Shown here: piece after piece, positions 4,688-27,893 of the stretch
Position numbering within the stretch: position 1 is the stretch's first letter
Layout of the letters: each line of letters opens with the position of its first letter
Origin: a virus
Reading direction: 5' to 3' (one strand)
Virus record (IMG/VR): IMGVR_UViG_3300011113_000257
Coordinates: 32,001 to 96,000 of that record
DNA length: 64,000 nt
Made by a program: the position numbers and the translations under genes
The notes under the pieces: generated by a model
What the model saw: the letters and a program-made list of their open reading frames with translations, nothing else
Databases searched by the model: none
Told to the model about the DNA's origin: nothing

Positions 4688-5271
4688 GGCTCTATTGTAC
4701 AGAGTTTTCTCTTAAGTGTTTCTCCTCGCAGTCACGGGCGAGTTGGGGGACAACGTATTGTTTGCCGCACCAGTCGCAGAACCAAAGATGGTCGTAATTA
4801 GACTTCGAGTTCGAGTCTGACAAAGAGTTCCTTTCGACACTTACATTCTAAGCCGGGATAAGTTGAACGGAAAGACGAAAAAGGTGAACAGTAACTTTAT
4901 TTGGATTTGGGCGCTGAGGCGGCTGTCGTTGTTTCGTACACTTGTTCTAATCGTTTCGGCATTTTTATTTGAATTTTCAACTAACAAACTTTTAGAAATT
5001 TTTTATTTCTTTGTGCCTTTGTCTTTAAGTTTGCCTTTGCTTTTTGTCTTTATCCTTTTACCTTTTTGTGTGCCTGCCTTTATGACTTGCCTTGCCTTAT
5101 GAGTGTTGCCTACTCATTAAACACGCTCAACACGCTGAAGGAATACAATTATTTTTCCTAGTGTCATAAGGCTTTTCAAAGTATTTACTAAATTCAACTT
5201 GCACTAACCTGACTTTTCTGAGACAATTGTTTTATCAAGTTGCAAGGGGCAACTGATAGAAGGAGACCAAG

Positions 5272-5478
5272 ATGTCTAACTACCTAACCAAGTCGTATGA
5301 GATTCGCGCCTACACTTTAATGGGCGAGTTCATCTGCGTAGAGTGTGGAGAAAGTCTTTTCAGAAACTCTGACGATGACCCTCAGCCAGTGTTCAGTGAC
5401 CAGTGGAACACTCAGGAGATGCTTGAGACTTATGGGCTAGAAATACCTTGCTTCGCCTGTTACGAAGAAATACGATAG
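5272..5478 (+). CDS. Small Zn-ribbon protein in a promoter-hairpin-terminator cassette
   Basis: CVEC...CFAC; RBS AAGGAG; own promoter and terminator. Confidence 0.7.
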   Translation: MSNYLTKSYEIRAYTLMGEFICVECGESLFRNSDDDPQPVFSDQWNTQEMLETYGLEIPCFACYEEIR

Positions 5479-5489
5479 CCAAAGGCATA

Positions 5490-5523
5490 AGCCCCTACAC
5501 CGCAAGGTGTGGGGGTTTATCTT
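5490..5523 (+). terminator. Intrinsic terminator
   Basis: AAGCCCCTACACC-GCAA-GGTGTGGGGGTTT followed by a T-rich tail. Confidence 0.75.
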
Positions 5524-5647
5524 TGCTTACCGCAGATAGGCATAACCGCAACACGCCAAAAACTTTTTACCGTATGACTTGCATTAACCTGACTTTTCTG
5601 GAATAATCATCTTATGAGGTTGCAAGGGGCAACCGCGAGAGGAAGCA

Positions 5648-5959
5648 ATGACCGTAGAAAAACTAATCGAAGAATACCTAGAGGTTCTAAACGATAAGGC
5701 ACTAACTATCTGCACTACCGCATACGGAGTAAGCAAGGGACGTAAGTTTGCAAAGGTACTGGCACACGGTACTCAGACATCAGTACACGCTTTCGTAAAC
5801 CTAGAGAACGGTGACGTAATCAAGCCAGCAACATTCAATGCACCGCAGAAAAATTCTGACGGTACTTTTTCAGTCCGCTACAACTTAGTGGATGACGAAT
5901 CACGCAAGGCACTATTCGCAGAGTTAGACCCGTATGGTCACTACCTTTACGCAAGGTAG
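5648..5959 (+). CDS. Conserved phage hypothetical protein
   Basis: GRKFAKV..SVHAFV..GDVIKPA motif; own cassette. Confidence 0.75.
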   Translation: MTVEKLIEEYLEVLNDKALTICTTAYGVSKGRKFAKVLAHGTQTSVHAFVNLENGDVIKPATFNAPQKNSDGTFSVRYNLVDDESRKALFAELDPYGHYLYAR

Positions 5960-5967
5960 CCAACTAG

Positions 5968-6008
5968 AAAAACCCCCCCACCGCAAGGTGAGGGGGCTTT
6001 CTTATTTA
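5968..6008. terminator. Bidirectional intrinsic terminator
   Basis: AAAACCCCCCACC-GCAA-GGTGAGGGGGCTTT between convergent genes. Confidence 0.75.
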
Positions 6009-6015
6009 CGAAAGA

Positions 6016-6285
6016 TTAAACGCTTTCGCTTTTCTTGCCTTTTGACTTTGTATCAACCGAGTTAAACACTTCATCAATTTCTGCATCAGACAAGTCACCG
6101 TCATTAATGTAGGCGCGTGATAAGCCCTCGACTACGGTAGCGACTCCACCGACTCCAGCCATAAGAATTGCTTGCCAGAGTTCGACTCCAGCAATAGTTC
6201 CAGCACCGATAACCGATAGACCTGAAGCAGAGAATACGGCAAGAATACGCAAGGTAATCTTTCGTATCTTATTAGTTACTGTCAT
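6016..6285 (-). CDS. Small two-TM membrane protein (holin-like)
   Basis: Two hydrophobic segments; RBS GGAAGGA before ATG at 6285. Confidence 0.6.
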   Translation of the reverse strand: MTVTNKIRKITLRILAVFSASGLSVIGAGTIAGVELWQAILMAGVGGVATVVEGLSRAYINDGDLSDAEIDEVFNSVDTKSKGKKSESV

Positions 6286-6387
6286 AGTGTGTCGTCCTTC
6301 CAAAATTTCACACGGTGCTAAAACAATTTCAGCACCCAGCCTTACGAGTTTATCGCAGGTATTGGGTGCTGAAATTATTTGTGGCAA

Positions 6388-6663
6388 CTACTTAACAATA
6401 ATTCTCATTGCTGTCGGTGCAGTTACTTCAACAACTGGTGCAGGTGCAGGTTCGACAACTGGTTCAATAATTGGTTCTGGTTCTGGCTCAACCGTAGGTT
6501 CAACTACGACTGGTTCAGGTGCAGACTTCCTACCTTTGTATGTCTTTGCAACTGGTTCTTCTACCGTAACTTCCGCTACTGGTTCGACAACTAATTCAGT
6601 CACGGACTCTTCGAGTTCCGCAACTTCATCAACTGTCACTTCAAGTTCTGGATTCAGTTCCAT
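6388..6663 (-). CDS. Acidic Pro/Glu/Val-rich low-complexity protein
   Basis: VEPEPEP repeats; RBS AAAGGA before ATG at 6663. Confidence 0.6.
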   Translation of the reverse strand: MELNPELEVTVDEVAELEESVTELVVEPVAEVTVEEPVAKTYKGRKSAPEPVVVEPTVEPEPEPIIEPVVEPAPAPVVEVTAPTAMRIIVK

Positions 6664-6864
6664 AGTATTCCTTTGTTGAGGTTGTGCCTTGTATCTATTG
6701 TAAGACACAACTCAACTTCCTAGTTCTCTCTAATAGAGAGTAACGCAAGGCTAACCGCGTTAAGACCGAAAGCAAGTGTTAGCAAGTCTTTGCCTAACAT
6801 TGCCGAAACTACTGCCAATACCCCCGCGCCGAGCGAGGCTACTGCCACCCAAATAATTTCAGTT

Positions 6865-7059
6865 CTATTCACTAGAAACCTTTTTCGGGCGAGTTCGACC
6901 CTTTAACCGAGTAGACGAGTCACGCAACTCAACGCCTTCAGCCCAAACTGCCTTCCGCGCTGTACGGTAGCAAACATCTAGTTCACTAGCAATAGTTTCA
7001 ATAGACTTACCTTCTAGGTACATTTCGCTTGCTTGCTTACTAATTTTCTTGACAATCAT
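6865..7059 (-). CDS. Small HTH protein
   Basis: YLEGKSIETIASELDVCYRT. Confidence 0.65.
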   Translation of the reverse strand: MIVKKISKQASEMYLEGKSIETIASELDVCYRTARKAVWAEGVELRDSSTRLKGRTRPKKVSSE

Positions 7060-7307
7060 TATTTACTTTTCCTTTTCTTTTTCTATGTAGGGGCTTGCCC
7101 TACCCCCTTAGGGGTAGAGCAAGTCTTTACAACTTTGAGATAACTCAACGGTATCCACCTTGCATCTATCTGGCGTAGCCAAGTTCTCTGCTACTACAAA
7201 CATCGCAATCAGTATTACCGCAATGAATACGTTCCGAACACGTTCTCCGCGCTTAGTAAGTTTCATCTTGCTCTCCTTTTCGTTGAACCATTCAACTAAG
7301 GACAATC

Positions 7308-8252
7308 TTACGCACTAACCTGCACTTTGTCAAGTCCAGACACGCGAGTCTTTTCATAGACGTTAGCCACTACTTCAGCCCAGATAGACGGCGTATGCGT
7401 ATGAGGTTGATAACCACCCGCACCGCCTATCAACACGCGCCCTTGAGCGTAAGTGTTAGCAATGTCCGCAACTATGTCTGAGGCGTATGCATAGCCGTCA
7501 TAGTCAAATTGCAAACTAGCAAGCGGGTCAGTCTTGTGACCATCCGCGCCAGTAGCCAGTAGCACAACATCAGGTTGATACTTATCCGCAAGTTCACGGA
7601 TGTCATCCATAGCCTGAGCAAACTCCAAGTTCCCAGCACCACGAGGCAACGCCCAGTTGTAAACTGAATTTTTTTCGTCGTGACCACTACGCCCAGTTCC
7701 AGGGAATACAGTCCCGTCGTGAATACTCATAGTTGGAATGTCCGTATGGTAAAGCAATGCCTCAACTCCGTCACCGTGATGAGCATCCCAGTCAATGTAC
7801 ATAGTCTTTAGACCTGCTTCACCGAACTTCTTTCCAGCCCAAGCAATGTCATTAAACACGCAAAAACCACTTGAGTAGTCATAGTGAGCGTGATGCTTTG
7901 CACCTTGAGGATTAAAGCCAACTTGCACTTCTCCAGCAATCATCTTCTCAACTAGCCGAGCCGTACCTGCAAACATCTTGAGCGCAGTAAGACCAAGTTC
8001 TGGTTTTGTTCCTGCCCACTCATTCGATAAGCCAAGTAGCACTTCTTGAATGTAGGCAGGGTGATGCACTTTATGTAGTTCTTTAATGTCCGCATCCGTG
8101 CTTTTAGGCGCAACAATCTTTACGCTATTTTTGCCTAACTTGTCAATAAGCAAGTCGGTAGCAAGCAATGCGCGTTCTGGATTAGTAGGGTGACCTTCAC
8201 CTAACTGCCAATCCAAATAATCATTTCCGTATGCAATGTGTAATTTTGTCAT
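7308..8252 (-). CDS. Zn-dependent histone deacetylase / AcuC family deacylase
   Basis: HP.NP.R, GAKHHA, GFCVFND, DWDAHHGDG, GADGH..DPL and GAGGY motifs all intact. Confidence 0.93.
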   Translation of the reverse strand: MTKLHIAYGNDYLDWQLGEGHPTNPERALLATDLLIDKLGKNSVKIVAPKSTDADIKELHKVHHPAYIQEVLLGLSNEWAGTKPELGLTALKMFAGTARLVEKMIAGEVQVGFNPQGAKHHAHYDYSSGFCVFNDIAWAGKKFGEAGLKTMYIDWDAHHGDGVEALLYHTDIPTMSIHDGTVFPGTGRSGHDEKNSVYNWALPRGAGNLEFAQAMDDIRELADKYQPDVVLLATGADGHKTDPLASLQFDYDGYAYASDIVADIANTYAQGRVLIGGAGGYQPHTHTPSIWAEVVANVYEKTRVSGLDKVQVSA

Positions 8253-8759: not shown

Positions 8760-8924
8760 TTTTTCCTTTCCCTTGAAGAATAACAGGTTAATAACATTTT
8801 GTCAAATTGACGGGAAAAGATAAAACCCTGTTATCAAATCGTTATCAAATGGATTAGGAAATGTCAGGGTAATGCGCTATGCTTAGTACATAAGCCAACA
8901 AGGGGTTGGTGAAAAGGGGTAACA

Positions 8925-9167
8925 ATGAATTGCACTCAATGTGAGAGAAAGGCTTACTCCGTAGGTCTTTGTACTGCGCACTATATGGCTAACTATCGGG
9001 CAAAGAAAAAATACGGCATACCTACCAAAGTCTCTAAGCGACACGGTGGCTGTGTAGAGGCTGGTTGTGAGCGAGAGATTTACTCAAACTCCATTTGCAG
9101 GACACACTATATGAGGGTCTATCGCCGTAGGGTAAAGATACGAAATAAAGAAGGTCTAAAGATTTAG
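8925..9167 (+). CDS. Small protein with two C-C-C-H Zn-finger repeats
   Basis: C..C...GLC..HY twice; own TGTCAGG-type promoter at 8855-8883, hairpin and RBS. Confidence 0.7.
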   Translation: MNCTQCERKAYSVGLCTAHYMANYRAKKKYGIPTKVSKRHGGCVEAGCEREIYSNSICRTHYMRVYRRRVKIRNKEGLKI

Positions 9168-10858: not shown

Positions 10859-10929
10859 TTGCTCTCCTTTTTATCGCCCCTTGCGATAGTTCTATCATAA
10901 CACAAGTCTCTGACCTTTGTCAAGTTAAA

Positions 10930-11056
10930 CGCTAGACGCGCCACCGAAAGGGGATAAGGTGACGCGCCTAACATTTATGAGTGGGGAGAAAGGGGGGGCA
11001 ACCCCACTCGTATTCGGAGCATAGGGAGAAGGGAGAAAACCCTCGCTCTACGAACT
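10930..11056 (-). ncRNA. Candidate three-hairpin small RNA with anti-Shine-Dalgarno loops
   Basis: Extended -10 TGCTAAAGT at 11062-11070; three stems with loops TTTTCTCCCTTCT, TTGCCCCCCCTTTCT and TTATCCCCTTTC; no ORF. Confidence 0.7.
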
Positions 11057-11204
11057 CCTCTACTTTAGCATAAAAAAATTTCAGTTATGCCTCCGTGTCG
11101 GAAAATTTAACAATCCCCACAAACTGACTTACTCGAAACCTTTTTCGAGTCAAGCCCAAACCTTTTACCGCATCTCCAACAATTAGTAAAGATAGTCACT
11201 ACCC

Positions 11205-11935
11205 TCACTCCCCAATCTCTGGAATGTCGTAGTCGTTCTGCCAACCGCACTTAGGGCAAGTCCAAACACCGCGCCCCCAGTCGTCAAAAGATACTTCCTC
11301 TGTACCCTCAAACTTGCAGTCAATCTCCGCGCCTGACTGAAACTCAATAATGCCTTTGCACTCTAGGTCATCAATCTCTGCTGAATCCGCGTAGAATCCT
11401 GAACCTCTTAGTGAACCTTCGTAACTCATTTTGTTTCCCTTCTTCTATCGCCCCTTGCGATAAATCTATTTAACCACATAATCTGACTAATGTCAAGTTA
11501 CTTGATAACTGTGCCTGTCCAACCCTCTGGAATTGAGTATTTAGTTTTTAGTGCCGTGTGAAAAGTGTCCACAACTATCTGACAAACACCGTCTAGTATC
11601 TCGTCACTCATTCCGTCAAGGTATGTCCGCAAGTTTTCCTGCAACTGTTCTTGCAATTCAAAAGTATTCATCTTGTTCTCCTTTCAAGAGTAAAGTTCCC
11701 CAACCCTAAATTTCCAAAACATCTAGGGGTGGGGAATCCTTTATTTGTCGTTGATACCTAACAAAGCGAAAATTTCATCTTCGTTCAAGACAGTAACCTT
11801 GTCGCCACTATCATCAACAATTTTTACGCTAGTTACACGGTAAGAGTTAGCAACCAAGTCACGAACTTCTTGCGCCGTGTTAGCGGTAAAACTGTACTCG
11901 TTATCTTTCGACTTCATTGTTACGTTGTAAGCCAT
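11205..11935 (-). CDS. Three small hypothetical genes (11205-11429, about 11500-11671, 11741-11935)
   Basis: Strong RBSs GAAGGGA and GAAAGGAG before each ATG. Confidence 0.65.
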
Positions 11936-11959: not shown

Positions 11960-12152
11960 CCTTCCCGCACTTTGCGGAAAAGTTTTCAGTTTATGAAGTA
12001 GGTAGGTGGCTCTCTCAACCACCTGTATGCGCTTCCCCACGCTTCCTATTCGGCTACCTACTTCAGTATTGACTGGCGAACTACGCACCGCACTCCAGTT
12101 GTAGTTTTCTTACCTAGTGCAAGACCAGTCAAGTCTTTCTCTATTTAGTTAT
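11960..12152 (-). ncRNA. Candidate structured RNA or long structured leader
   Basis: Perfect 12-bp stem 11994-12005/12054-12065 and 8-bp stem 12069-12076/12125-12132, each enclosing sub-helices; own promoter 12158-12187. Confidence 0.5.
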
Positions 12153-12188
12153 GACCCTAGTCTATCATACTAGGTTTGCTTTCGCAAG

Positions 12189-12267
12189 TCCCAAGAGTAG
12201 GAATCGAACCTACCGTGCCAAAGCGAGTGATTTACAGTCACCTTCCCCACCTTGAGGAATCCTTGGG
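12189..12267 (-). tRNA. tRNA-Tyr (GUA), atypical
   Basis: Acceptor CCCAAGG/TCTTGGG+A, anticodon loop CTGTAAA, T-arm GTAGG-TTCGATT-CCTAC, long variable loop; own promoter about 12286-12316; no encoded CCA. Confidence 0.8.
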
Positions 12268-12624
12268 GTTATTTAGTTATGGAACTAGTTTATCATACTA
12301 GTTATCTTTTTGCAAGTTCTTCGATTAATCTTGTTCGGCGTACAACATCTTTCGTACTCCAACCTTGACCAATCTCCGCGCAAGACTCCAAGTAGTAATC
12401 TAAGTCCTGAATTTCATCGTGAAGTTCGTTCACGGTGAGTTCCTCTACTGGTTTGTTTCTTGTAAGCATCTTTGCCCCTTTCGTTCCTCAAGTGTACAAC
12501 ACTTTCCTGACAAATGCAAGTCACGGGAAAAGATAATTTAGCGAAGGCGGGACTCAGAATAAAAAATTTCAGTTTTACCAAAAAAGAAAACCCCCGCAAT
12601 GCGCGAGGGCTTTCCATTTTTAGA

Positions 12625-13466
12625 TTAGTAGTTTTCGTTCACCCAATCCACAACGTCTTGCATTTTATCCGCGCTACGCGCTACCGCTAGAAAGTTTTCA
12701 TCTTCTAGTAATAGGCTTTCGTGAACAGTGGTCTCACCTGCTACGAAACCCAGTACGACTCTTAGATTAAGAGTTGATAGTAGTTGTCCTGTTGCCATTT
12801 TTTCACCCCTTTCCGTGTGATAACACGAGTCTATCATACCTACCTGACATTTGCAACCCTAACGCCCGAGCGTGGTGGGGCTAGTTGCCCCCACCACCGC
12901 ATTCGCCATCGGCGAATTCGAGACAACCGCCACAGCAGTCGTCACAAGTACGCACCCAGATAACATCTAGGGCAGGAATGTGTAGAGTTGAGTGAGTTGA
13001 GGTTGTGTTGCAGAATTGGCATTTGGACATTTGAAACCCCTTTAGGTTTAGTATCAAGACCCCTTGCCTTGATGAATCAAGTCTATCATACCTACCTGAC
13101 ATTTGCAAGCACATAAGAAAACCCCCTCCGTAGAGGGGGCTTTCCAAAGGGGTCGCGCTAGACGTTAAATAGTTTTTGCACGGCGGTTAGTGCCTTTATG
13201 TCTTTACCACCAATGTGCCAATCGTATTGACCGTAGTTAATTCCGCTTTCGTAGTTCTTCCAGTCGTAGATACTCGCGACAAATACTTCGCCAGTTGTTT
13301 CATCTTCAAACTTTAGCAACCATTCTGCCTGTACTTTATCTTCGGTATAGCCCAAGTAGTGTGGCTCTCCCAACTTTTCTACGATAGTCGCGTAGGTTGT
13401 TCTTACATAACCAAGTAGGAAAGTTCCGCTTGTGTCTACAGAATTACTTTTTTCTATGAGTTTCAT
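12625..13466 (-). CDS. Three single-gene cassettes (12625-about 12798, 12881-about 13030, 13158-13466)
   Basis: Each has a TGTCAG promoter, 5' hairpin and AAAGGG RBS; the last carries an ASIYDWK..WHIGG motif. Confidence 0.65.
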
Positions 13467-13624
13467 TTTTTCTCCCTTTCGTGGTATTTCCACTACCTAA
13501 AGTAAACCACTTTATCTGACAAAAGTCAAATCAAATTAAATCCCGCGTGTCCCTAAAAAATTTCAGTTTTACGTTCCCGCACAAAAAAAATAACCCACCC
13601 CGTAGGGTGGGCTACTTTTGTAGA

Positions 13625-14098
13625 TTAGAATCTGCGAGCGCAGACCGGGCCGATACCGCGAGCAACTGATACCTCATCAGTTAATTCACGACCGCAAGCG
13701 CAACATACGCCAAACTGGATACCGTAATCGCAAGCCTGTTCAAGAGTCATCTTGTCATCAGCCGAGATAGCACGGATGTAACTAGGGTCGTACTGGAATG
13801 ACCCACCAACCAACTTGGTTGCGTATGGGCGACCTGACGACTGCGAAATCTTAACGCGGTAGACAGAACCCTCCTTAAAGTAAACGCCGACCTCAAGGGC
13901 GACAACTGGCGCGGTGGTGCGTGGCTCACGCGGTGCGTATGGAAACGACCGCAAAGCGTCAATGACGGAACTAATTTCGCGCTTGGATAGCGCGGTGATG
14001 TCGCCTAAAGAAGCGCGGAACGTGTCCGAAACTGCGCGTGAAGCGAGCAGGGACTGGGCATACGAGATTTGGCTCTCGGTGGCTTGTGTTGTGTTCAT
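13625..14098 (-). CDS. DUF6011-domain protein
   Basis: C-terminal CCACGRELTDEVSVARGIGPVC; N-terminal ATESQI motif; leaderless promoter TTGACT-N17-TAAGGT-N6-ATG. Confidence 0.75.
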   Translation of the reverse strand: MNTTQATESQISYAQSLLASRAVSDTFRASLGDITALSKREISSVIDALRSFPYAPREPRTTAPVVALEVGVYFKEGSVYRVKISQSSGRPYATKLVGGSFQYDPSYIRAISADDKMTLEQACDYGIQFGVCCACGRELTDEVSVARGIGPVCARRF

Positions 14099-14476
14099 AG
14101 AACAACCTTATCAAACAACCTGATAAAAGTCAAGCCAACAACTCATAACTATTTTTTCCGGGCAGCGGCGGCGGCAGAACTGAAATTTTTTATTTCTCCC
14201 GCGCAAGAAAAAAATCCCCACCTTTCGGCGGGGTTCTTTCTTTGGTTTAGGCTCTGGTTAGAAAGCGTTTTCCCTCGTGGCGGTGGAACAATGCGATTCC
14301 GTAGCGGTGGGCTACTTCTTTTCCGCATAAGTAGCAATTTGCTTTCCCGTAAAGTTTTCCAAACATTTTGTTCTCCCTCTATCGGTTACTTCCTGCAACC
14401 TGATAAATCAAGTATAACACACTAACCTGACAAATGCAAGTTAGGTGCGCCAGCCGTAGCCAGCGCACCCGTAACC

Positions 14477-14821: not shown

Positions 14822-15144
14822 TTGCTTCCCTTTCTCTGTGGTACTTCCACTAAAAAATAATAACACATCTCCCTGACATTTGCAAATTATCTTTTCCGCG
14901 TGTCCCCTGACCTAAAAAATTTCAGTTATCTAACTCAGCGCAAAAAGAACCCCGCACTTTCGCACGGGGAACTTTTTGTTTGGTTAAAGTATTTCTCCTA
15001 CTGTTGCTTCCTCGCAAGGGTCGCAAATCCAACCCTCTACTCCGTGCTGGTCAAAAGGAATCATAGTGTCCTTGCATTCAACGCATACAACGTATTTTGT
15101 CCCGTCTGTAGACGTAGCAACTAAACTATCTAATGCGTTCATCT

Positions 15145-17452
15145 TTACACCTCCCCTGCTTCTAAAGTTTCAAAGTAGTTGTTCACATCAACAATCGAGC
15201 AAGGCTCGCATTGTTCATAACCTCCGTCAAGACTGAACTTGTCTAGCGCGTTACCGCACTCTACGCACTTCTCATCTTCGCCTAGTGCTTCTTCCGCACC
15301 GCGTAGTAGCCATTCATCAAATCCTTGTAGCACTTTGCTACCTCCCTTTCTTGTATTCCCATTGTAGCGCATTAGCCTGACATTCGCAAGTTACCGCGCA
15401 AAAAGAAAGAGCGAGCCTTTCGGCTCGCCCCTCCTAGAGTTTAGTAAGTAGCAAAGGTTCGATTAGAGCCTAAGTCCTTAGCAAATTCGTAGATGTGTTC
15501 AAGGTTGATTGTTTTGCTTTCGCCCTTGTTGTTGAAAGCAACCGTGTCGCCTTGAAAGTAACGATACTTTTCCCAACCAACCGAGATAATTACCGCAACC
15601 CAGTCGTCTTGTAGGTGTCGCTTGAATACTTCTGCCCAGTCTACCTCGACAGTTTCATCTTCTTCTTCACTCCACACACTCCATAGGTTTGCTTCACCGT
15701 CTGGGTCAGCGTCAATAAATCCGTAAAGTGTTACGCCGTCTTTCTCTTGCGTAATTACTTCAACAGGATAGTTTGCAAGTTCTGTCTTAAACGCTTCCGC
15801 GTCTTTAACTGCAAAGTAGTTGCTTCGTGCCTGACCAAAAAATTGAGCCATTTCTTATCCCTTCCGCAAGTAAGCCCTTCTTACTCGCTGTATCTATAAT
15901 ACTAAATTACTTGACTATTGTCAAACTCTCCTTGTAAGAGTCCGCAACTTTTGCACACGAAATCATCTATCTCAAGTTCGTAAAAGTATCTGTGCTCGCA
16001 GTCTACGCGCCAAATTGAATAACACTCGCAAGCAAAACAACGGTGCTTATCTTCGCCGAGTTCGATTACCTCATCTTTTTGGATAATCCAATTACAAGTA
16101 TCACACCGAAAAGATTTCACTTTTTCATTCGAGTTGTTGCTGACGTAAATCCATTCCTCTGACATTAATCGTTCCCTTGTTCATAGCAGTTGTAGCAAGT
16201 CCAACCGCTTTCGATTAGGTCATCATCTAGCAAGTCGCATTGGCAGTTTATGGTGTCCGCGTTCATTAGAACACTCTCCCATACTCGTTTTCAACTACTG
16301 ATAAATCAACAGGTGATGTAACTTCCCATTGTTCGTATGGTGTTGGGTCGTAACTATCTCGGCATTCGTTACACCATAGTTCGGGAAACCAACGGTGCTT
16401 TTTAGACATTTCGGCGATTGGAAAGTCTTGTTCGCAATCCACGCAAAAATCGTTTTCTTCTGGTATTTCAACTCCAAGCCATTGTGTCATTTTGTTCTCC
16501 TTTTTGTTTTCGCGGGCTATCCGCTTAGTAATACTTTATCATACTATTTTGTTTGGTGCAAGTAGTAGGGGGCTTGCGCCCCCCACCGCATTTGCTAAAC
16601 GTATTCACATACTAGTTCTAGTAAATCCGCGTAAGTTTCTACCCCATTTAATAAGCCGTAGATAGCGTCTGTTAGTTCTGTAGAGTTCCTGATAGTTTCA
16701 ACTAGCAAACTTTCCTCAACTAGCAAGTCACCTGCAAGACAACGAATTGTCATTTCTGCACTCATTTTGGTTTCCCTTTCTTGTAAGGAGTTTCCTTACA
16801 TTTCTAATAGTACGGACTTTCTTGACATTTGTCAAGTGATTACGCAAACTCGTTTATTGCGTGTCGGCGTTGGGCAGACCTGTCACGATTACGGCGTGTA
16901 CGCCTATCCGCAAACTTTGCAGACTTTTGGTTTAGGACATAGTTCCCTCGACCTGTCACTAGATTGTCTAGTGGACTCTTGCGCTTAGCCATCTCTGACT
17001 CCTTTCGATAAATCTATTGTAGCACACTTCCCTGACATTATCAAATCGAACCGCGCTCGGCGTGTCGCAATTTAATAATCTCCGTAAAAAATTTCAGTTA
17101 TGAAAATAAGAAAACCCCCACTTTTGGTGGGGGCTTCCTTGCCTTACATAAATCGGTGGTAGAACTCTACTACCTTTTCCCGTGCCTCTTTCCAGTCTGC
17201 CGTAGCGCAGATAGTGACTGTCTGCTCGATACCATTCACATCATCTACCCAACCTATGGCTTCATAGATAGTCACGCCGTCATCATAGTCATAGACCCTG
17301 ACTTCGGCATCTACCGTTTCGTTCATCTCGATAGTGATTGCGTTGTCTGTTACTGGGTTAAGTAGCACCCGTGTAATTCGACTTGCTGGGTGGCGTAGCG
17401 TGGCTAGAAATAATCTAGTGGTTTCGCTGTATGTTGGAATTGTAGTTTCCAC
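15145..17452 (-). CDS. Run of small acidic / Cys-rich hypothetical genes (incl. 15145-about 15336, 15441-15851, 15902-16165, 16266-16490, 17144-17452)
   Basis: ORF track plus cassette signals; several further ORFs under 60 aa with clear RBSs. Confidence 0.65.
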
Positions 17453-17585
17453 TTTTGTTTTACCCCTTTTGAGTTATCTACCGCGCCTTGCGGTATGTAG
17501 TAATCGTATCATACCTTTATGACATTTTCTGTATTTCGAGAAAATAAACCCCGCCCGTAGGCGGGGCTTATCTCGAGTATCCGCA

Positions 17586-18101: not shown

Positions 18102-18655
18102 TTGGGTTTCCCTTCTGTAAGCAAGTCCCTCTTGCTCACTCTGTGAGTTTATCATACTAGCCTGACATTCGCAACTCAAACGAAAAACTTTTTTCGTGTC
18201 GCCATAACTGAAATTTTTTAAGTAGGCAACAAAAAATCCGCGCAATCTTCCGCGCGGACTTTCTTTTGTTTAGAACTTGTAGGTGATGTTAAAGTCTTTC
18301 CGCGTGAACGGGATAAAGGTTTCCCCGTACTCCACATCTCCAGCGTAATTTGTACCGATTTCGTAGCGAACTACAATCTCATCATTCTCTACGAACACGC
18401 TAACTAATTCTGAAAGATAACTTGTAGTCGCGTAATCTCTCCAGTTAGTTGTGATGTCCTCGATAGCGGTGTCTATTGTGTCATACAAAACTTCGCCGTC
18501 TACTTCGATAATGTCTATTGTTCTCACGTCTGACATTTTGTTTCCTCTCTTTCGCAACCCCTTGTTGCTAGTACCTAGCGTACCCTACTTCCCTGACATT
18601 TGCAAGTTGAAAAAGGGGCGAGTTTCCCCGCCCCCTTTTCGTGCGCCCTCCGCGC

Positions 18656-19129
18656 TTACCAAGAACTCTTGTAAGCAAAACTCCAGCCCTCTGGAACTTT
18701 AGAGAGTATGCGCCCAAGTTGAACAAGGGTATCTTCAACCTGTTCCCAATACCACTCGTCAATCTCATACGAGCCGAAGAAGAAACCTGCTTGAGTTGGT
18801 AGCAATTCTTCCGCCAACTCTTTGTTCTTGCTTTTCCAAACTTTCATACAGACATCATTTAATTCCTGCAACTGCTCTCGGCTAACGTAATACTCCGCGC
18901 AATTATCTTCACCCTCTTGCACGTTGTCCACGAACCATTGGTGTATCTGGTTAGCCTTGCGCCAGTAGCCAACTTTTACCTTGACCGTAATTGACGGGTA
19001 CTCCTCGTTCTCGAAATCTCCTGCGCCAATCGCATCAGAAACTTTTGCGTATGCATCTCTGGTTGCTTGTTCTTGCCATTCGCCACCTGATAGGTAGTTA
19101 CTTGCATAAAGGTACTGGTCTAGTCCCAT
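18656..19129 (-). CDS. Conserved phage hypothetical protein
   Basis: MGLDQYL..YWRKANQIHQWF..LLPTQAGFFFG..YKSSW. Confidence 0.75.
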   Translation of the reverse strand: MGLDQYLYASNYLSGGEWQEQATRDAYAKVSDAIGAGDFENEEYPSITVKVKVGYWRKANQIHQWFVDNVQEGEDNCAEYYVSREQLQELNDVCMKVWKSKNKELAEELLPTQAGFFFGSYEIDEWYWEQVEDTLVQLGRILSKVPEGWSFAYKSSW

Positions 19130-19297
19130 TTTGTTTTCCCTTCCGTAAGCAAGTCCGTCTTGCTCACTCTGTAAGTTTATCATACTAGCCTGACATTTGC
19201 AACCTGAACGCGAAACTATTTTTTCCGCGCCCGCGCCAGAAAAAATTTCAGTTTTCAATTTGAGATAAACGCGGATTTCTCCGCGCTCTCTCGTTTG

Positions 19298-21656
19298 TTA
19301 TTCGACTTCGTTATCCGCAAGGATTTGCTTGACGGCTTCAATCGCTTCCTCTAGAGTTTCGCAAACTTCCCACCACTCATCGTCAGCCTTTGGCTCATAG
19401 AACTCAAACCAATTATTATTCACCCAGACATCTTGCTCTGCGTGTGCCGTGTTGAACTCTGCCAACTTCGTGTCCGTGTCAATCCCTGCGGAGATTAGGT
19501 CGCTTGTGTAACGCCAGACATCTCCGTTAGGTAGGTTGATACGCATCTCGCCGTTAGACCCAATGTGAAACTCTCGGTCGCCCGACTTAACTACGGCTAG
19601 AACTTCCCAGCCGTTAGTCCAGCAATAGAACGCCGAGTCTGTCTGCTCTGGGTTCTGCTCTACTAAATACTCAACCGTGTAATCCATCACGCCACCTAGT
19701 CCTCGTCTGACTCAACTCGGACACCGCAAGTAAAACACTTTAAGTTTTCCCAGTCAGGGTACTCGTAGCAAGTATCGTGGATACAGTCGTTAGTATCGAA
19801 CACCGCGCCAAGTAGTTCCAACAAACCGTCAAGGTACTCTACGGGGAACGCTTTCATCTCGCCGTACTTTGACGGTAAGGAAACAACTCCCGACATAATG
19901 TCCTCTGAAAGTTCCGCAAGAAAGTCAAACTGCTCTTGCAACATTTCATAGTCAATGTTTTTCATTTTGTTTTCTCCCCATTGAGTTCTAGCAACACCGC
20001 ATTTAGAGTGTCGTAAAGTTCTTCGTCTTTTGCGTAGTTCGCATCATTGTCAATCGCGTGAGTCCACTCATTTGTTGCCGTGTCGTAAACAGTTCCGTCA
20101 AAGTAACGAGTTTCATTTTCAATGTTCCACTTGCCTGTTTCGGTATCGAAACACACTACATAGTGATGCTGTGTAGTTGAGGGGTAGTAACCCTGCTCGC
20201 CTTCACAAGTTTTGCAGAACGGTGTGCAGTCGAAACCGCCCCCGTGTTCTGGACACTCAACCATTTCTAGTTTGCTCATTTTGTTTCCCTTTCTTAGAGT
20301 GAGTCCCTCTCGCTCTATGATAAGTATACGCCCCTAGCCTGACATTTGTCAAATCAGGGGCGCACACCGCGTGTTACCAATTCAGTTCTTCGCCATTCTC
20401 GTCTTGGAAGATTAAGTCACTCGTATCTGCCGTGTGACCCCAACCGCAACTAAAGTCATTCTCAATCCACACTTCAACTCTCTGCATAATGTCCCACAGG
20501 GTTATTTCACTATGTGGAGTTTCAGTTTCCGCGTGTATGTCGTTAGCAATCTGGTTTACGTCATACGAGACAACTTTCATCACGTTAATGCGTTCTGGTA
20601 ATTCTCTCATTATTTCTCCATTCCGTGTCCAACGTGGACTAATCTAATTTCTGGCTCGCCGACTTCGATTCCCCAGCCATTCTTTAGTAGTTCTAATGCT
20701 TCTTCTTCGCTAGTGCAAAGTTTAAGATTCTTAGAGTCAATCTCTAATGTCTTGATTACTTGAAACTCGTAACGCATTTGGTTTCCCTTCCTTAGCAAGC
20801 CCTTCTTGCTAATAACTCTATGATACATCAATACCCTGACATTTGCAACTTGAACACGAAATTATCTTTTCCCGTGCCTTCGCTGAGTTCCGCATAAAAA
20901 ATTTCAGTTTTGTGAAACCAAGAAACCCCTAGCCTTTCGGCTAAGGGCATCTTTTGGATTAGGCGGTGATTAGTCCCTCGTCTATCAAGGTGCTGGCAAT
21001 TCTGCCGTAAGAACCTTGCAGTTGCCACGCTAGTCGCGTATCAACTAGTTGCTGAAACAAGTTAATTGTTTCTTCTCTGTCAAGATTACCTTCTTCGAAC
21101 TCGATGATTAAGTTCGTGATGTCGTGTAGTGACATTTGCTTCCCTTTCGTATTCGCCGTACTTCGGCTTATGTAGTAAGGATACACTAAACCCCTGACAT
21201 TTGTCAAGGGCTTAGTGTCCCGTGTCTTTAGTCTTCTTCTTCGTACTCATCTTCGTCTTCGTCTTCGTCTTCGTCTTCGTCTTCACGGCATCTGTCGCAG
21301 ATTGAGTCATAGTCCGCGCCAGACTCGCCACATAGTTGGCAAAACTCGTCTTCGTATCCCTGTGGGATTATGCTTTCGTATCCCTCGTTAGGGTCGTCCT
21401 CGTTAGTTGCTACTGATTGCACAAACTTTAGCCCGCAAGAGCCTTCGTACCAACGCTTGACTAGGGTAAGCATTTCGTCAGGGGTTGAGTCGGTAACAAG
21501 GAAACTTCCGTCCTCGCCATAGCCCCACTCTGCACTCTGCTTGACTTGCTGGTCGTCTTTCAAGATGTAAATCTTGTGACAACCATCAAACGAGATGCCT
21601 TTGGCTTCGTCAAGTTCTGCCTTAACTTCGTCCCAGATGTCTTGGAAAGTAGTCAT
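19298..21656 (-). CDS. Run of small acidic hypothetical genes (19298-19690, 19696-19965, 19962-20279, 20374-20610, 20610-about 20777, 20959-about 21135, 21228-21656)
   Basis: ORF track and RBSs; the last gene ends in a poly-Asp/Glu tract encoded by (GTCTTC)n at about 21250-21285. Confidence 0.65.
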
Positions 21657-21889
21657 TTTGATTTCCCTTTCTATCAGTAAGCCTTTCTTGCTGATAAAAC
21701 TATCATACCACACTATCCTGACATTACCTAATCGGGGCTTTAGCGCGTGTCGCAGAAAAAATTTCAGTTATCTAAAATTACGAAACCCGTACCAAAAAAA
21801 TTTCAGTACGGGCTTCGCTTAGAAACTGTCGGAAGGCTGACACACGCTGGAAGGACGATACCCCCCGACAGGGCTTATGGGTTATTCAA

Positions 21890-23698: not shown

Positions 23699-23835
23699 CT
23701 CTGGCTCCTTCCTTTTGTACGCCCCTTTGACGTACTCTGTGAGTTTATCATACCTTCTTGATATTTCCAAATTGAAGGGTGGGGAGTCGGGAAACACTCA
23801 CGAAAACCGACTCCCCTTAGCAAGGATGAAAGGGA

Positions 23836-24867
23836 CTAAATCCTTGCTGGCTTGTATTCCGCACCAAACACGCGAGACAGAACATCTGCCACGATTGGTC
23901 TGTCCATCTCTGGTGCAGAAGCAAGTAAGTTCGAGATACCAAACGGAACCCCGAATGTTGTAACGATGTCGCGGAACGCTAAAAGTTCGCGCATCTGTGG
24001 AGCCCACGAGACTTCACCAGACTCTTGTTTCTTAGCAAGATTCTGCGCAACAGTAACGAGGTTGCTAGGTACACCTAAGGTGCGAGCAAGTGACCAGTCA
24101 GTTGCCATCTCTGCTTGAACAGTAAAGCGAGATAGTAAGGCTTCTGAAAGTCGTACTCCCGGAGCATTAGGGTTAGTTGCACCCACAACATAAAAGTCAG
24201 GGTGAACCTTAACAGTACCTCTGTCAGGATTAGCAGTGACAGTAATTTCGCCACGTCCATCCATCACGCCATACAAACCTGAAAGTTGCTTAGGGTCAAT
24301 CAGACCAATCTCGTCAATGAACAAGACTGCACCTTCCTCTACTGCTCGCACAAGTGGACCATCTACCCACTCGAAACCACCAGCAGGATTCTGTACGAAC
24401 CCACCAAGGAAGTCTGACATTTCGATGTCAGCAGTTCCAAGTACTGTGTACATATTTCCACCAAACGCTGCTTCGACTAATGCAGTCTTACCAGTTCCCG
24501 GTGCGCCATAAAGCAACGCGAACATTGGCGAGCCAACTTTGTCTGTGACAGACAAGGTAGTTGCTTCACGAGCCTTGCGTAATGTTGCAACATCTTGATG
24601 TTCACCCCAAGTACGAGCGTGGTACACACTTCCATTTGGACGAATGTATTGACTACTACTTGATTCAAGTGTGACACCTGATGTTGTAATTGGTGTCGCT
24701 ACGCGAGCAACGCGAGGTGCGCGTTCTACGAAACGACCTTGTGGTAAAACCTGCGAGATTACTCTCATAGATGCTTCTGTTGATACTGACTGCGCAACCA
24801 TGTCGTCTAACATGGAAGTGAATTCAGTTCCCCACTTTGAATAAATTTCATTTTCTTTGATGCTCAT
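23836..24867 (-). CDS. MoxR/CobS-type AAA+ ATPase
   Basis: Walker A GAPGTGKT, WVDGPL, Walker B LFIDEI, ATNP, LSEALLSRF. Confidence 0.9.
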   Translation of the reverse strand: MSIKENEIYSKWGTEFTSMLDDMVAQSVSTEASMRVISQVLPQGRFVERAPRVARVATPITTSGVTLESSSSQYIRPNGSVYHARTWGEHQDVATLRKAREATTLSVTDKVGSPMFALLYGAPGTGKTALVEAAFGGNMYTVLGTADIEMSDFLGGFVQNPAGGFEWVDGPLVRAVEEGAVLFIDEIGLIDPKQLSGLYGVMDGRGEITVTANPDRGTVKVHPDFYVVGATNPNAPGVRLSEALLSRFTVQAEMATDWSLARTLGVPSNLVTVAQNLAKKQESGEVSWAPQMRELLAFRDIVTTFGVPFGISNLLASAPEMDRPIVADVLSRVFGAEYKPARI

Positions 24868-24883
24868 AATTTTCAGTCCCTTT

Positions 24884-25351
24884 CTACGCTGTGAACATTT
24901 CTGGATAAGATAATGCAGTTCGAGTCTGGTTGATTCGATGCACGACCTTAGTTGGAGTCTTACCTTCTGTTACATCTGTCAAGTCTTTCTGTGAAACTTC
25001 CACAAAAAATGGCTTGCCAATAAGTACGCTACTAATTGAAACGCGCTTCATAAACCACGCTAGTGTTTGAAGTCGCTCCTCGCGATGGTTCTCTGATGTA
25101 ACCCCTGTTGCTGGGTCTACGAGACTACGCTGAAGTGCTTGCACCTTCCATTGTTTCTTTGGCTGTGATGCCGAAAGACGACGATAGTAGACACGCGCTG
25201 TCGAAAAATTTCCAAGTTCATTCCAACCATCTGGAGTAATGAACATCTGAAAAATCTGTTGGTATTCATTCTTGAATTCCGCGTACAAGGCTGTGCCCTG
25301 TACTTTCTTTTCTGGGTCTGTAAGCAGACCAAGAGGTGTTTCTGTTGACAT
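24884..25351 (-). CDS. Hypothetical protein, first gene of the MoxR operon
   Basis: RBS GAAAGGA; promoter TTGACT-N17-TAAACT at about 25398-25426. Confidence 0.7.
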   Translation of the reverse strand: MSTETPLGLLTDPEKKVQGTALYAEFKNEYQQIFQMFITPDGWNELGNFSTARVYYRRLSASQPKKQWKVQALQRSLVDPATGVTSENHREERLQTLAWFMKRVSISSVLIGKPFFVEVSQKDLTDVTEGKTPTKVVHRINQTRTALSYPEMFTA

Positions 25352-25475
25352 AGTGAGTATTTCCTTTCTTTATGTCTTTTGTCCCTGTGACATTTCTAGT
25401 TTAGCATAACGCTATGATGGAGTCAAATCGGGGTAGGAGTATGTCTAAGGAGACCTACCCCGACCTGACTTCTAA

Positions 25476-25808
25476 CTACTTAGCGACAATGATGTCGTAA
25501 GTAGAAACCTTTGAACAGGTTTCGTATGCTTCTGGATAAACTTCTTTCAGAAGCGTTGAGTCCACATTGGTGCGTGAACGTGGTGCAAGTTCCACTACTG
25601 GAAGCCCTGCGACAGTACCAACCTTGGCAGAACCAATTAGGTCACGAATTGCGCTGTCAAGTTCTGACTTTGCTTTTTCGAGTTCCTTGATTGCAAGTTT
25701 TGCGTTAGCAAAATCTGCAAGCAGGTTCGCGATGTTGGTGTTGTCCAATTCAACGGTGGACGTTTCCGTGACAACCTGTGTTGTCGTTACCTGTGTGCGT
25801 ATGCTCAC
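25476..25808 (-). CDS. Hypothetical coiled-coil protein resembling the C-terminal region of YqaJ-type proteins
   Basis: R..VD...LK..YPE.Y motif; GTG start after GAAAGGGG. Confidence 0.55.
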   Translation of the reverse strand: MSIRTQVTTTQVVTETSTVELDNTNIANLLADFANAKLAIKELEKAKSELDSAIRDLIGSAKVGTVAGLPVVELAPRSRTNVDSTLLKEVYPEAYETCSKVSTYDIIVAK

Positions 25809-26122
25809 TTTGGCGATTCCCCTTTCAAGGAAAGTTCGATAGACCATCTAACGAACAGTTCTAACTTTACGCCCTACACCTGACATTTGTCAAATCGAGC
25901 GTTTCCACCCCGATTTCTCGGGCTGTTTTCGTTCATAGAACCAATGTAACACATTACCCTGACATCCGCAAGTTTATTTGATAACGATTTGATAACGGAC
26001 CGGGAACTGAAATTTTTTAGTTCCGGGTTGTTGAAGGCGGGCTCCAATAAAAAATTTCACTTTTGGGCAAAAAGAAACCCCCGTTCGAAACTCACTGGTT
26101 TCGATTTAACGGGGGTTGGTCT

Positions 26123-26311
26123 TTAGAGTTCTTGCTCCCACTTTTCGATGTCAAACATTTCCCAGATTTCATCATCTGTGAAATTTTCCTTCAACCAAAT
26201 AGCGGTGCGCTTTTGGACTACTGGGTTTTCGTCTACTGGCTTAGCAGTTCCGAAGATGCTACCCATAAGGGCTTGGTATGCGTGTGCGTTTGCTTCATGC
26301 GGTTTGTTCAT
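26123..26311 (-). CDS. Hypothetical protein
   Basis: Promoter embedded in the end of the upstream gene; AGGAG before ATG. Confidence 0.6.
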   Translation of the reverse strand: MNKPHEANAHAYQALMGSIFGTAKPVDENPVVQKRTAIWLKENFTDDEIWEMFDIEKWEQEL

Positions 26312-26772
26312 ACTCCTACGGTAACACGAGGCACTGACATTTCTTCAGGTGTCCAAATGTAGGGGAGGTCACTTGGCGTATCGGGAAAAAATTCAGAGTA
26401 GTACTCAGGGGCTTTGCGCAAGAGATTCGAGCGGTGCGATTCGTGGAACCGTGAGTTCCCGATGAACCAAGGCAAGCCTTCGTACCGCTTACCTTGCACC
26501 GTTAGGTCTCGCATCTTCTCGATGAAGTACGGTAGCAGGTTGTCGACATACCCTCTCCGTTTCCACTCCAGCGACATTATTGAACCGTAGTACGCGAGTG
26601 CGAACTCGTGCCCACGCCACATCTTGGTCGCAGGGTGGTTGACCCAACCCGTTGTCTCGCCGTTGAGCGCCATCAGTATTTGCTTGGTCTCAACCCGTTG
26701 CTTCCCGAGCCGTCGGTAGTCCAATACCCTCGCCGTCTTTTCAAAATCGGCGTATGGCAGGAACGTCTGCAT
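26308..26772 (-). CDS. Pyrimidine-dimer DNA glycosylase-like (MSMEG_6728 family)
   Basis: MQTFLPY..LD..RLGKQRVE, HPA.KMWRG, SHRSNLLRK and LPYIW motifs. Confidence 0.82.
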   Translation of the reverse strand: MQTFLPYADFEKTARVLDYRRLGKQRVETKQILMALNGETTGWVNHPATKMWRGHEFALAYYGSIMSLEWKRRGYVDNLLPYFIEKMRDLTVQGKRYEGLPWFIGNSRFHESHRSNLLRKAPEYYSEFFPDTPSDLPYIWTPEEMSVPRVTVGV

Positions 26773-27893
26773 TAGCCCTCGCCGTTCTCTCGAACTAGCG
26801 CGATGGCTCTCGCCATGCCTGCAGACCAACCGTCGTTAAACGCGACATCCGTCTCGTCCATTTCCTCAGCGTCCGTCATGTCTTCTTCGGTTACCCGTTC
26901 CCACTCCTCCATTAAAATTTCTAATAGTGTCATGTGGTCACGCCCGCTAACGCCCACGCCTTCTTGAGGTCGCGGTCGAAGTCGCGTTGCAACTTATCCC
27001 ACGCCGTTTCGTCAAAAAGGATTGGGTGCGCCTCTTGCTTATTTCTGCTAAGCACTCGCCGTATAAAAGATTTCAGTTCCGTGTAGTTCATGTTCTTGCT
27101 CCTCCTTTGTTTTGCGGGGCACGCCGTGTGCCTCGCCGTCGTGATGTATTAACTTTATGATAAAAGTTTCTAGATGTCAAGCGCGTACTCTGGGAGTTCC
27201 ATCCCTGCCCCAACTAACGCGCGCCGTATTAAACCTTGCTGACGCGAAGTTGTCTGCGAGTATTTATCTACGTTCAGATAAGTAACCTGACGTTTTTCTG
27301 TGTTTATACTAGCCATCCGTGTTGAGTAAGAGTAGATGTCGTAGATGATGTCGCCACCAGCGTCGCACCATTTCGAGGCTCTCATGCTGTGACCGTGCTT
27401 GAATGGTTTGAATGCTGGAATAAATTCTTCTGCAATTTCTTTGTAACTAGGCATTTTTATTTCCCTTCCCGTTGATGTGTCTCACCAACAAGAACCATTC
27501 TATCATACCAACCTGACATTCGCAACTTAAGGCACGCCATTAGATTTCTTCAGTGTCTTCCATTAGTTCAGGAAGATTTTCCTCAACCATCTCCCAGAAG
27601 GTATCAAAAATTTCGATATTCTCTCGAACCTCTTCAACGGGTGCATCGTATTCAATGGTAACGATTTCGTGGACGTGCTCTTCGTCTTCCTCAACGTGGT
27701 GAGTTCGAAACACATAGTCACCGTCTTCGGTGATTAGGTAATTAATAAACATCACGGAGCACTCAGATGTGAGCGCGACTTGGTATGTCTCGGTTAGGGG
27801 GTCGTAGATAGGACAGCAAGCAGAAATGATGTCGTGCATGTAGTGCCCTTTTTTGATGACACGGCTTGGGTGAATGTTGTTCGGTTTGTTCAT
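26772..27893 (-). CDS. Small hypothetical genes (26772-about 26933, about 26938-27091, 27170-27454, 27540-27893)
   Basis: 27170-27454 has YSYST..YSQTTSRQQ; cassette promoters at 27512 and 27916. Confidence 0.6.

Follow-up and report, generated by a model that had tools for sequence, protein, structure and literature searches.

Why should the early genes of an uncultured phage carry, leader after leader, a small hairpin of RNA that varies freely in its stem but much less in its loop? The question is raised by a 64,000-nucleotide (nt) stretch of viral DNA, called the window throughout (bases 32001-96000 of the 110,857-bp virus record IMGVR_UViG_3300011113_000257; G+C 44%), in which small early genes are preceded by stem-loops whose loop is almost always purine-rich, five bases long and begins with A. 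Hairpins that protect messenger RNA (mRNA) from its 5' end are textbook knowledge and are thought to act through shape alone. The element described here is an RNA of the sense strand that is placed in gene leaders; its stem covaries, and selection acts across lineages on the size of its loop and on the first loop base. It is real, selected and clade-wide, comparable to an ompA-type 5' stabiliser to which a constrained loop has been added, and its role would probably be to stabilise the message. What is new in comparison with known 5' stabilisers is the constrained A-first pentaloop and the serial use of the element, one per early gene. More than 60 independent copies on more than 50 stems keep the A-first, five-base purine loop, for which stability is no explanation, and the finding suggests that actinobacteria or their phages have a reader of mRNA 5' ends that has so far escaped recognition. 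Promoter, cap hairpin and ribosome-binding site together form a compact, portable expression module.

Leader hairpins of the early region

The early region (about 5200-28000) consists of small genes, almost all of them on the minus strand. For most genes there is a separate sigma70-type promoter, made up of TTGCAA or TTGACA, then ATGTCAGG and then an extended -10 box, and for many a separate terminator as well. The early cassette opens with a terminator and the AACTGAAATTTTTT box; next come the sigma70-type promoter, the hairpin and a tail made of purines only, in which the ribosome-binding site lies, and a small gene closes the unit.

The 62 nt upstream of 32 start codons, picked regardless of structure, were folded, and hairpins were enumerated with their energies. 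Across 5238-27494 there are 28 leader hairpins, 25 on the minus strand and three on the plus strand (including one extra plus-strand leader); four leaders are free of hairpins, and three genes, with a short open reading frame as a fourth, are leaderless. Strict A-first pentaloops account for 23 of the 28, with AAGGG occurring ten times, AGGGA, AAAGG and AAGTA twice each, and ACGGA, ACGGC, ACAGG, AAGGC, AGGAA, AGACA, ATAGC and AAATA once each. Four more have loops of the form A-xxx-U that are closed to triloops by RNAfold (AAACU, AAAGU and, twice, AUGGU), and the single exception is a UAUC tetraloop at 12813-12828, identical in the close relative. The original prediction, made from the letters of the DNA, had counted about 20 leaders with such a hairpin and quoted ten of them; all ten are present as written, and the count of 28 exceeds its estimate.

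This is far from what base composition alone would give. An A-first pentaloop hairpin is found in 20 of the 32 leaders compared with 1.69 +/- 1.31 (maximum 6) in 100 dinucleotide shuffles, and the summed minimum free energy of the leaders is -293 kcal/mol compared with -162 +/- 10.6 kcal/mol in the shuffles (z ~ -12). Loops of 5 nt make up about 12.5% of the background hairpins of the window (at least 5 bp), and A stands first in 28-38% of these. The genome's 20 strict terminators include eleven tetraloops (four GAAA, as well as GCAA, UUCG and CGUA/ACGG, which is the UACG type), a single 5-nt loop (CAAAA) and no A-first pentaloop. AAGGG-pentaloop hairpins with a folding energy (dG) of -5 or below number ten in the 110.9-kb genome, and all ten lie in leaders. 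Loop length and first base are thus both enriched over other hairpins; the original prediction had named the opposite result as one that would speak against it.

A thermodynamic optimum can be rejected as the explanation of the loop. The terminators prefer GAAA, UACG and GCAA tetraloops, and in a model made for pentaloops an A.A first mismatch costs 0.6 kcal/mol, a bonus being given to a C-G closing pair only (PMC9074901). Since tetraloops are used where stability is the goal and the A.A mismatch carries a penalty, the pentaloop must be selected for something else. The suggestion that a plain stabilising hairpin would not need a fixed loop size is therefore supported, as the loop retains its size and first A where stems and loop positions 2-5 differ, even between orthologous leaders.

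A clade-wide loop on freely varying stems

Related metagenomic phages were gathered from viral contigs by a promoter-motif scan and two protein-anchored scans. As a hairpin of only 13-29 nt on a free stem is too poor in information for a specific search of collections, all contigs passed through one fixed pipeline in which promoters were scored, the leader was cut out between the -10 box and the first start codon that has a Shine-Dalgarno (SD) site, and structures were predicted with RNAfold. Pentaloops are A-first in 13 of 13 cases in the close relative (119.7 kb), 10 of 10 in L201, 12 of 12 in L202, 5 of 6 in L200, 5 of 5 in L227, 4 of 4 in L219 and 3 of 3 in L233, and the rule is seen in other contigs too. 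Fourteen contigs yielded 95 non-redundant promoter-proximal hairpins, among which 64 have 5-nt loops (p ~3e-35 for the excess over the 12.5% background), and 61 of these 64 begin with A (p ~7e-13 for the excess over the 54% A of unpaired tails). The three G-first pentaloops (GACAA, GTAAA and GTAGA) occur in relatives only.

Over the 14 contigs the loop consensus is A-R-R-G-R. Position 2 is A in 28, G in 24, C in 8 and U in 4 pentaloops, position 3 is a purine in 97%, position 4 is G in 77%, and position 5 is A in 35, G in 24 and C in 5. A GG lies within 45 of the 61 A-first loops, the commonest of which are AGGGA (18) and AAGGG (12), and 54 of the 61 copies are closed by a C-G or G-C pair.

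Stem pairs were counted on a gapless, loop-anchored set, as a MAFFT alignment displaced 10 of the 64 sequences and was not used for counts. Pairs 5, 6 and 7, which the selection of the set did not impose, are formed in 84, 78 and 62% of hairpins, respectively, compared with 35-42% when partners are slid or shuffled. All six pair types occur at positions 2-6 and five at positions 1 and 7, and there are 54 distinct 5' arms among the 61 A-first hairpins. G.U pairs are present in 30 of the 61 hairpins (40 of 416 pairs) and would become A.C mismatches on the opposite strand. Because half of the stems hold G.U pairs, the element is an RNA of the sense strand, and a DNA palindrome or operator, with which the freely differing stems also disagree, is rejected.

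Orthologous leaders provide the best evidence, and the freely covarying stem of the original prediction is confirmed. The leader of the vWA-type protein gene (hairpin at 23717-23735, minus strand) reads GUACGUC-AAAGG-GGCGUAC in the window, GUGGGUC-AGAGG-GACUCAC in L201 and GUAAGUC-AAACA-GGCUUAC in L202, that is, unrelated stems with loops AAAGG, AGAGG and AAACA. At the leader at 21656 (hairpin at 21673-21695, minus strand, with one internal mismatch and loop AAAGG) a GCAAG-type stem here corresponds to a UAUCGC-type stem with loop AAGGG in L201, both under an A-first GG loop, and the L114 ortholog has the loop AAGGA. For the leader at 19129 (hairpin at 19145-19167, minus strand, from the fold), each of three lineages has a stem unrelated to the other two, and the loops are ACGGA (in the window), AGGGA and AAAAA. 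In cases where this genome and its relatives share a stem, loop positions 2-5 vary but position 1 never does (AAGGG/AGGGA, AAAGG/AAGGA, AAGUA/AAAUA, AGGAA/AGGGA, AAAUA/AGAUG and AGGGA/ACCGA), and copies with swapped arms (GCAAC...GUUGC versus GUUGC...GCAAC) retain the orientation of the loop.

Such comparisons also bear on the idea that the loop has no function and that the cassettes are recent duplicates of one ancestral cassette in which the loop has not yet diverged. Several stems do fall into paralogous groups (the GCAAG, TATCGC and GTTGC types), but the number of distinct 5' arms, the orthologs with unrelated stems under the same class of loop, the divergence of positions 2-5 and not of position 1, and the kept orientation in arm-swapped copies make this explanation highly improbable.

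Position in the message

Leaderless genes allow the start of transcription to be placed. In three genes and the short open reading frame (at 14098, 10483, ~27883 and ~25940, minus strand) the ATG follows the -10 hexamer by exactly 6 nt, and for the DUF6011 gene among them (13625-14098) this spacing is kept in two relatives. As these genes hold 6 nt between the -10 box and the ATG, the first transcribed base would be the seventh nucleotide after the box. The first paired base of the hairpin lies 4-11 nt past the -10 box (mode 6-9), which would leave the 5' end with 0-4 nt unpaired; judging from this promoter geometry, the first transcribed base itself is probably paired in the commonest design. 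From the end of the stem to the start codon there is a median of 16 nt, and this tail is 54% A and 28% G (82% purine). The stem-loop thus lies between the -10 box and the ribosome-binding site, where it had first been noted.

A terminator or attenuator is rejected for the hairpin, since there is no U tract after it and the tails are purine-rich. A comparable layout is that of the PeSL (promoter-early stem-loop) cassettes of T4-type phages, where small orphan early genes are preceded by a stem-loop and a Shine-Dalgarno site together with a strong sigma70-like promoter (PMC2839356). Although the repeated, intergenic and modular layout is alike (PMC2839356), the stem-loop of the PeSL cassettes has GGGG...CCCC stems and lies around the promoter as a terminator or attenuator, whereas the hairpin described here lies inside the transcript, lacks a U tract and combines free stems with a constrained loop. 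It is placed downstream of the predicted start site and followed by purines, and ahead of the promoters stand distinct terminators, which have tetraloops.

Probable protection of the 5' end

The reading that we favour, with a probability of roughly 0.55, is that the hairpin chiefly serves to protect the 5' end as part of a standard early cassette. Host RNA polymerase would start at the first paired base or 0-4 nt from it, so that the message would begin with a near-blunt stem-loop, a poor substrate for decay that depends on the 5' end. The enzymes hindered would be the pyrophosphohydrolase that needs unpaired 5' nucleotides, RNase E with its 5' sensor and the 5' exonuclease RNase J, all of which are expected in an actinobacterial host. 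With a terminator hairpin guarding the 3' end, the short and mostly monocistronic early messages would be capped at both ends. The stem would also pair all pyrimidines of the leader, so that the ribosome-binding site a few bases downstream could not be sequestered. The loop, with its five bases, first A, purines and GG in three of four copies, would be a selected display that is read by some partner.

Known biology is consistent with the first part of this scheme. The pyrophosphohydrolase of B. subtilis requires at least two unpaired 5' nucleotides, and base pairing at the 5' end hinders 5'-initiated decay (review PMC3997798). Stem-loops and polypurine or SD-like stabilisers at the 5' end are known, including examples from phage early RNA and mycobacteria (PMC3997798 and its references; PMC2358910). 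Close parallels are the 5' stem-loops of bacterial and phage mRNAs, of the ompA and papA type in E. coli and the aprE and ermC type in B. subtilis; such a structure is expected to block decay that depends on the 5' end (review PMC3997798), and a stem-loop within a few nucleotides of the 5' end, the hallmark of this class, would be present in the phage leaders as well, if the promoter geometry is a guide. These stabilisers have no loop requirement, unlike the phage hairpin with its 5-nt, A-first loop in more than 60 copies across lineages, one per early gene. As the anatomy of the element matches a protective stem-loop, protection accounts for the stem and its position.

Several points weigh against protection as the whole answer. 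For stabilisation by itself, no fixed loop size and no first A in the loop would be required, so that protection alone leaves the loop unexplained. The 5' start is a predicted one that was placed from promoter geometry, and the hairpins at 5238 and 5618 on the plus strand stand behind another type of promoter. In addition, lineages with the same marker genes, and Actinomycetia phage DSL-LC01, lack leader hairpins and have CA-rich, unstructured leaders; the existence of such lineages means that the hairpin is a clade-specific design and neither a general need nor obligatory for early expression.

Neither databases nor the literature offered a precedent. The search for a known family that the original prediction had proposed was run on the window with Rfam and gave no match at the gathering score, leaving the hairpins without a family, and within 5000-28200 there were only sub-threshold matches at E <= 1 (terminators, tRNA). 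A full-text literature search found no published description of the hairpin element.

Possible readers of the loop

If the hairpin protects the message, the loop could still be read by some partner, and three kinds of reader can be weighed. None of them accounts for A rather than G at loop position 1.

The loop could be a mini Shine-Dalgarno sequence that is touched by the 3' tail of 16S rRNA in the 30S subunit and holds ribosomes at the 5' end, either as a stabiliser of the STAB-SD/polypurine type or by offering a standby site, with the real ribosome-binding site some 5 nt further downstream. The A-R-R-G-R consensus, the GG in 74% of copies and the immediate neighbourhood of the ribosome-binding site are in line with this, and AGGGA, AAGGG, AAAGG and AAGGA can be paired by eye with UUCCU or UUUCC of the canonical anti-SD. 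STAB-SD and polypurine stabilisers (B. thuringiensis cryIIIA, the early RNA segment of phage SP82 in B. subtilis and mycobacterial katG) have a purine-rich, SD-like sequence near the 5' end to which the phage loops may correspond. These, however, are single-stranded over 8-9 nt, whereas the phage hairpin offers 5 nt in a closed loop, a form ill suited to pairing. One loop in four is not SD-like, and perfect SD pentamers are avoided: AGGAG and GGAGG are absent, AAGGA is found in 2 of 61 loops, and GGG forms that would need G.U pairs with 16S rRNA dominate. As the A-first rule and the fixed size are not predicted by this model either, we regard it as unlikely.

A partner encoded by the phage itself is a second candidate. 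RNAs with C-rich loops that pair with G-rich loops or SD sites are familiar from bacteria, examples being S. aureus RNAIII acting on rot mRNA, the UCCC motif of the Rsa RNAs and the actinobacterial 6C RNA. The window contains a comparable, promoter-driven RNA at 10925-11075 (minus strand), whose membership in the system is uncertain; it folds strongly (z = -7.2) into three hairpins with the C-rich loops UUGCCCCCCCUUUCU and UUAUCCCCUUUC, and CCCCUUUC is displayed in two loops of 15 and 12 nt. These loops complement both AAGGG(G) and the ribosome-binding site of the early genes, GAAAGGG(G). The long hairpin of this RNA, whose loop is UUA(Y)(Y)CCCUUU(Y), recurs on covarying stems in at least eight related contigs (G001, L200, L124, L201, L202, L203, L207 and L227). 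The ribosome-binding site of the early genes is GAAAGGGAAAC, and AAGGG is found in 15 of 40 early compared with 2 of 42 late sites (Fisher p = 2.7e-4), the late ones being of AAGGA or GGAG types. Because the early ribosome-binding site is of the AAGGG type, it matches the C-rich loops just as the pentaloop does.

The G-rich loop might therefore be a kissing site for the C-loop RNA, which would shut off early messages through the loop and the GGG-type ribosome-binding site, in the manner of S. aureus RNAIII on rot mRNA, or a decoy that soaks up this RNA. Apart from the strong fold, the conservation of the complementary loop and the bias in ribosome-binding sites, the GG in 45 of 61 loops and the co-occurrence of the two elements point in this direction: the C-loop hairpin is present at 17 of 19 loci with at least three A-first pentaloop leaders and at 19 of 110 other loci, although these loci are not phylogenetically independent. 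On the other hand, the C-loop RNA is also present in lineages without leader hairpins (L212, L218), so that the ribosome-binding site, a simpler target, is the likelier main one. A closed pentaloop permits 4-5 bp at most, and about a quarter of the loops (AAGUA, AAAUA, AGACA, AUAGC, AGAAA and AAAGC) are not complementary and yet follow the same rule of size and first A. Nor was homology to the bacterial RNAs named above found (no Rfam match at E <= 1 in 5000-28200), and many leader loops of the phage are non-complementary. The kissing or decoy role is compatible with a protective stem, and the C-loop RNA is the only encoded candidate reader found here, but as an account of the loop it is doubtful. 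The original suggestion that AAGGG loops are kissing partners or decoys for CCCUU-loop RNAs could apply to the roughly three quarters of loops with GG, given the conserved and co-occurring C-loop RNA, and does not extend to AAGUA, AAAUA, AGACA or AUAGC.

Taken further, and only tentatively, a two-part RNA circuit may be imagined in this clade of freshwater actinophages, in which a C-loop RNA that mimics the 3' tail of 16S rRNA would grip both the pentaloop and the GGG-type ribosome-binding site and silence the whole early class, from which genes with non-G loops would escape. With such an anti-SD-like RNA co-occurring with the hairpins, a global RNA-based switch from early to late expression in phages becomes experimentally testable.

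Some further features of the C-loop RNAs were observed. A 5' arm of the RNA ends in UCACC and is followed by ...CCUUUC, and resembles the 3' tail of 16S rRNA. A counterpart lies at L114:12500-12660, and in L203 and L207 the C-loop reads CUCCCUUU and the ribosome-binding sites AAGGGAG. Another hairpin with a C-rich loop, AGCAAGGAU-UUAGUCCCUUUC-AUCCUUGCU, is found at 23781-23848 (minus strand) after the MoxR-type gene, and has counterparts with other stems in L198, L201, L202 and L203.

A third kind of reader would be a protein. In this case the loop would be a tag of the boxB or operator type, through which an RNA-binding protein of phage or host would govern the tagged early messages, be it in their antitermination, translation or decay. 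A fixed size and first A on varying stems are the signature of a readout of shape plus base, lambdoid N proteins do bind purine pentaloops, and the lambdoid nut boxB resembles the phage hairpin as a small, purine-rich pentaloop just downstream of early promoters. BoxB loops (GAAAA, GAAGA, GACAA) are G-first and GNRA-like; they are paired with boxA, occur once per operon and serve read-through of terminators. The phage hairpin differs in all of these respects, with 61 of 64 pentaloops A-first, one copy for nearly every early gene that bears a promoter and no evident need for read-through, as each of these genes has its own promoter and many have their own terminator. No boxA-like element was found, and the tails from hairpin to start codon share no pyrimidine motif; boxA cannot fit there because the tails are 82% purine.

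The early region does encode a possible protein partner, a conserved, basic and Arg-rich protein of 50 amino acids (16840-16992, minus strand; motif YVLNQKSxKFADRRTRRNRDR, with the helix-like ..DRRTRRNRDRSAQRR..), whose own leader has no hairpin and which is found at 45 loci in related viral contigs. Searches of Pfam, PHROGs and PDB sequences gave no family or structure match for it, and its homologs occur in lineages with short, unstructured leaders that lack the hairpin, so that it is a weak candidate for an N-like reader. Control of the CsrA/RsmA type is suggested by the loops AGGGA, ACGGA and AAGGA, which fit A-N-G-G-A in a short hairpin. AAGGG, the commonest loop in the genome, lacks GGA, however, and PF02599 finds nothing in the genome at E <= 1, so that this type of control is rejected; actinobacteria are not known to possess CsrA. 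Together with the wide variability of loop positions 2-5, these observations make a protein tag quite unlikely, and the boxB/nut class to which the original prediction had likened the element is not supported. In the high-GC lineage L176 the ribosome-binding site of the Arg-rich protein is paired with an upstream CUCCCUA segment.

Individual hairpins of the window

Apart from the three leaders compared above, the following hairpins were located by folding; all lie on the minus strand unless stated otherwise. At the distal end, the hairpin at 27466-27494 has the loop AGACA, which the L116 ortholog shares on a stem with one-sided changes, and those at 27118-27132 and 25834-25856 have the loops ACGGC and A-UGG-U, the latter a triloop if the A-U pair closes. 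The 4-bp stem at 25380-25392 carries ACAGG, a loop that stands on longer stems in L116 and L201. Further hairpins are found at 21155-21167 (AAGUA) and 20792-20812 (AAGGG). At 20296-20316 a stem with one mismatch carries AGGGA, and L124 has the same stem with the loop ACCGA.

The hairpin at 18554-18568 (AAGGG) has its arms swapped relative to that at 5238-5254 while keeping the orientation of the loop, and the close relative has AGGGA at this place. It is followed by hairpins at 18117-18139 (AGGGA), 17479-17495 (AAGGC), 16782-16800 (AAACU, a triloop if the A-U pair closes) and 16512-16524 (AUAGC). At 15866-15888 the loop is AAGGG, with AAGGA and AGGGA on other stems in the L202 and L207 orthologs. 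Loops that differ in the relative are AAGUA at 14838-14850 (AAAUA in the relative), AGGAA at 14384-14400 (AGGGA) and AAAUA at 13481-13493 (AGAUG).

Next to the exceptional UAUC tetraloop at 12813-12828 lies an AAGGG hairpin at 13053-13073, and the same loop is found at 11444-11464 and 10872-10888. The hairpin at 11960-11982 (AAAGU, a triloop if closed) has no canonical -35 box upstream, and that at 7282-7296 carries A-UGG-U, again a triloop if closed. The three plus-strand genes with a leader hairpin all have the loop AAGGG (8894-8910, 5618-5634 and 5238-5254), the last two behind the different type of promoter.

Source, host and neighbouring features

No DNA match to the window was found among deposited phages, and a search with a marker protein found no cultured close relative. 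The MoxR-type ATPase of the window is nearest to those of Actinomycetia phage DSL-LC01 (59%), which is the closest phage with a name, and of Microbacterium and Gordonia phages, and the genome has two WhiB-family genes (58511-58711 and 59519-59716, both on the minus strand). Because of the two WhiB genes and the nearest phage proteins, an actinobacterial host is a well-supported prediction. There are also a gene with a pyrimidine-dimer DNA glycosylase domain (26308-26772, minus strand) and a deacetylase-like gene (7308-8252, minus strand), the latter labelled by eye only; together with the WhiB genes they are ordinary phage cargo that helps in assigning the host.

About 16 copies of the AACTGAAATTTTTT box lie between a terminator and the next promoter, in the early region only (6850-29350; for example at 29345, 21765, 19250, 17100, 13565 and 12575), and a distant relative has TTGTAAATTTTTTAGG in its place. 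In the sister lineages L140, L138, L193 and L118 (DSL-LC01) the standard leader is the short, unstructured and CA-rich CACAUACACACAAAGGAGCG, and DSL-LC01 has GATTCTAAAGATGTTATAAT promoters followed by CAACAACGACGAAAGGACAA.

The plus-strand genes at 5272-5478 and 5648-5959 have a distinct upstream motif in common, AACCTGACTTTTCTG, followed after about 17 nt by TTATCA or TTATGA, and both carry the same AAGGG hairpin nearer to the putative -10 box. Within the stretch 12000-12320, a tRNA-Tyr (12188-12267, minus strand) stands under its own promoter, and a second promoter after it (-35 at ~12187) drives a non-coding stretch; a similar ...CAUAACUAAAUA... sequence is found at the start of both transcripts.

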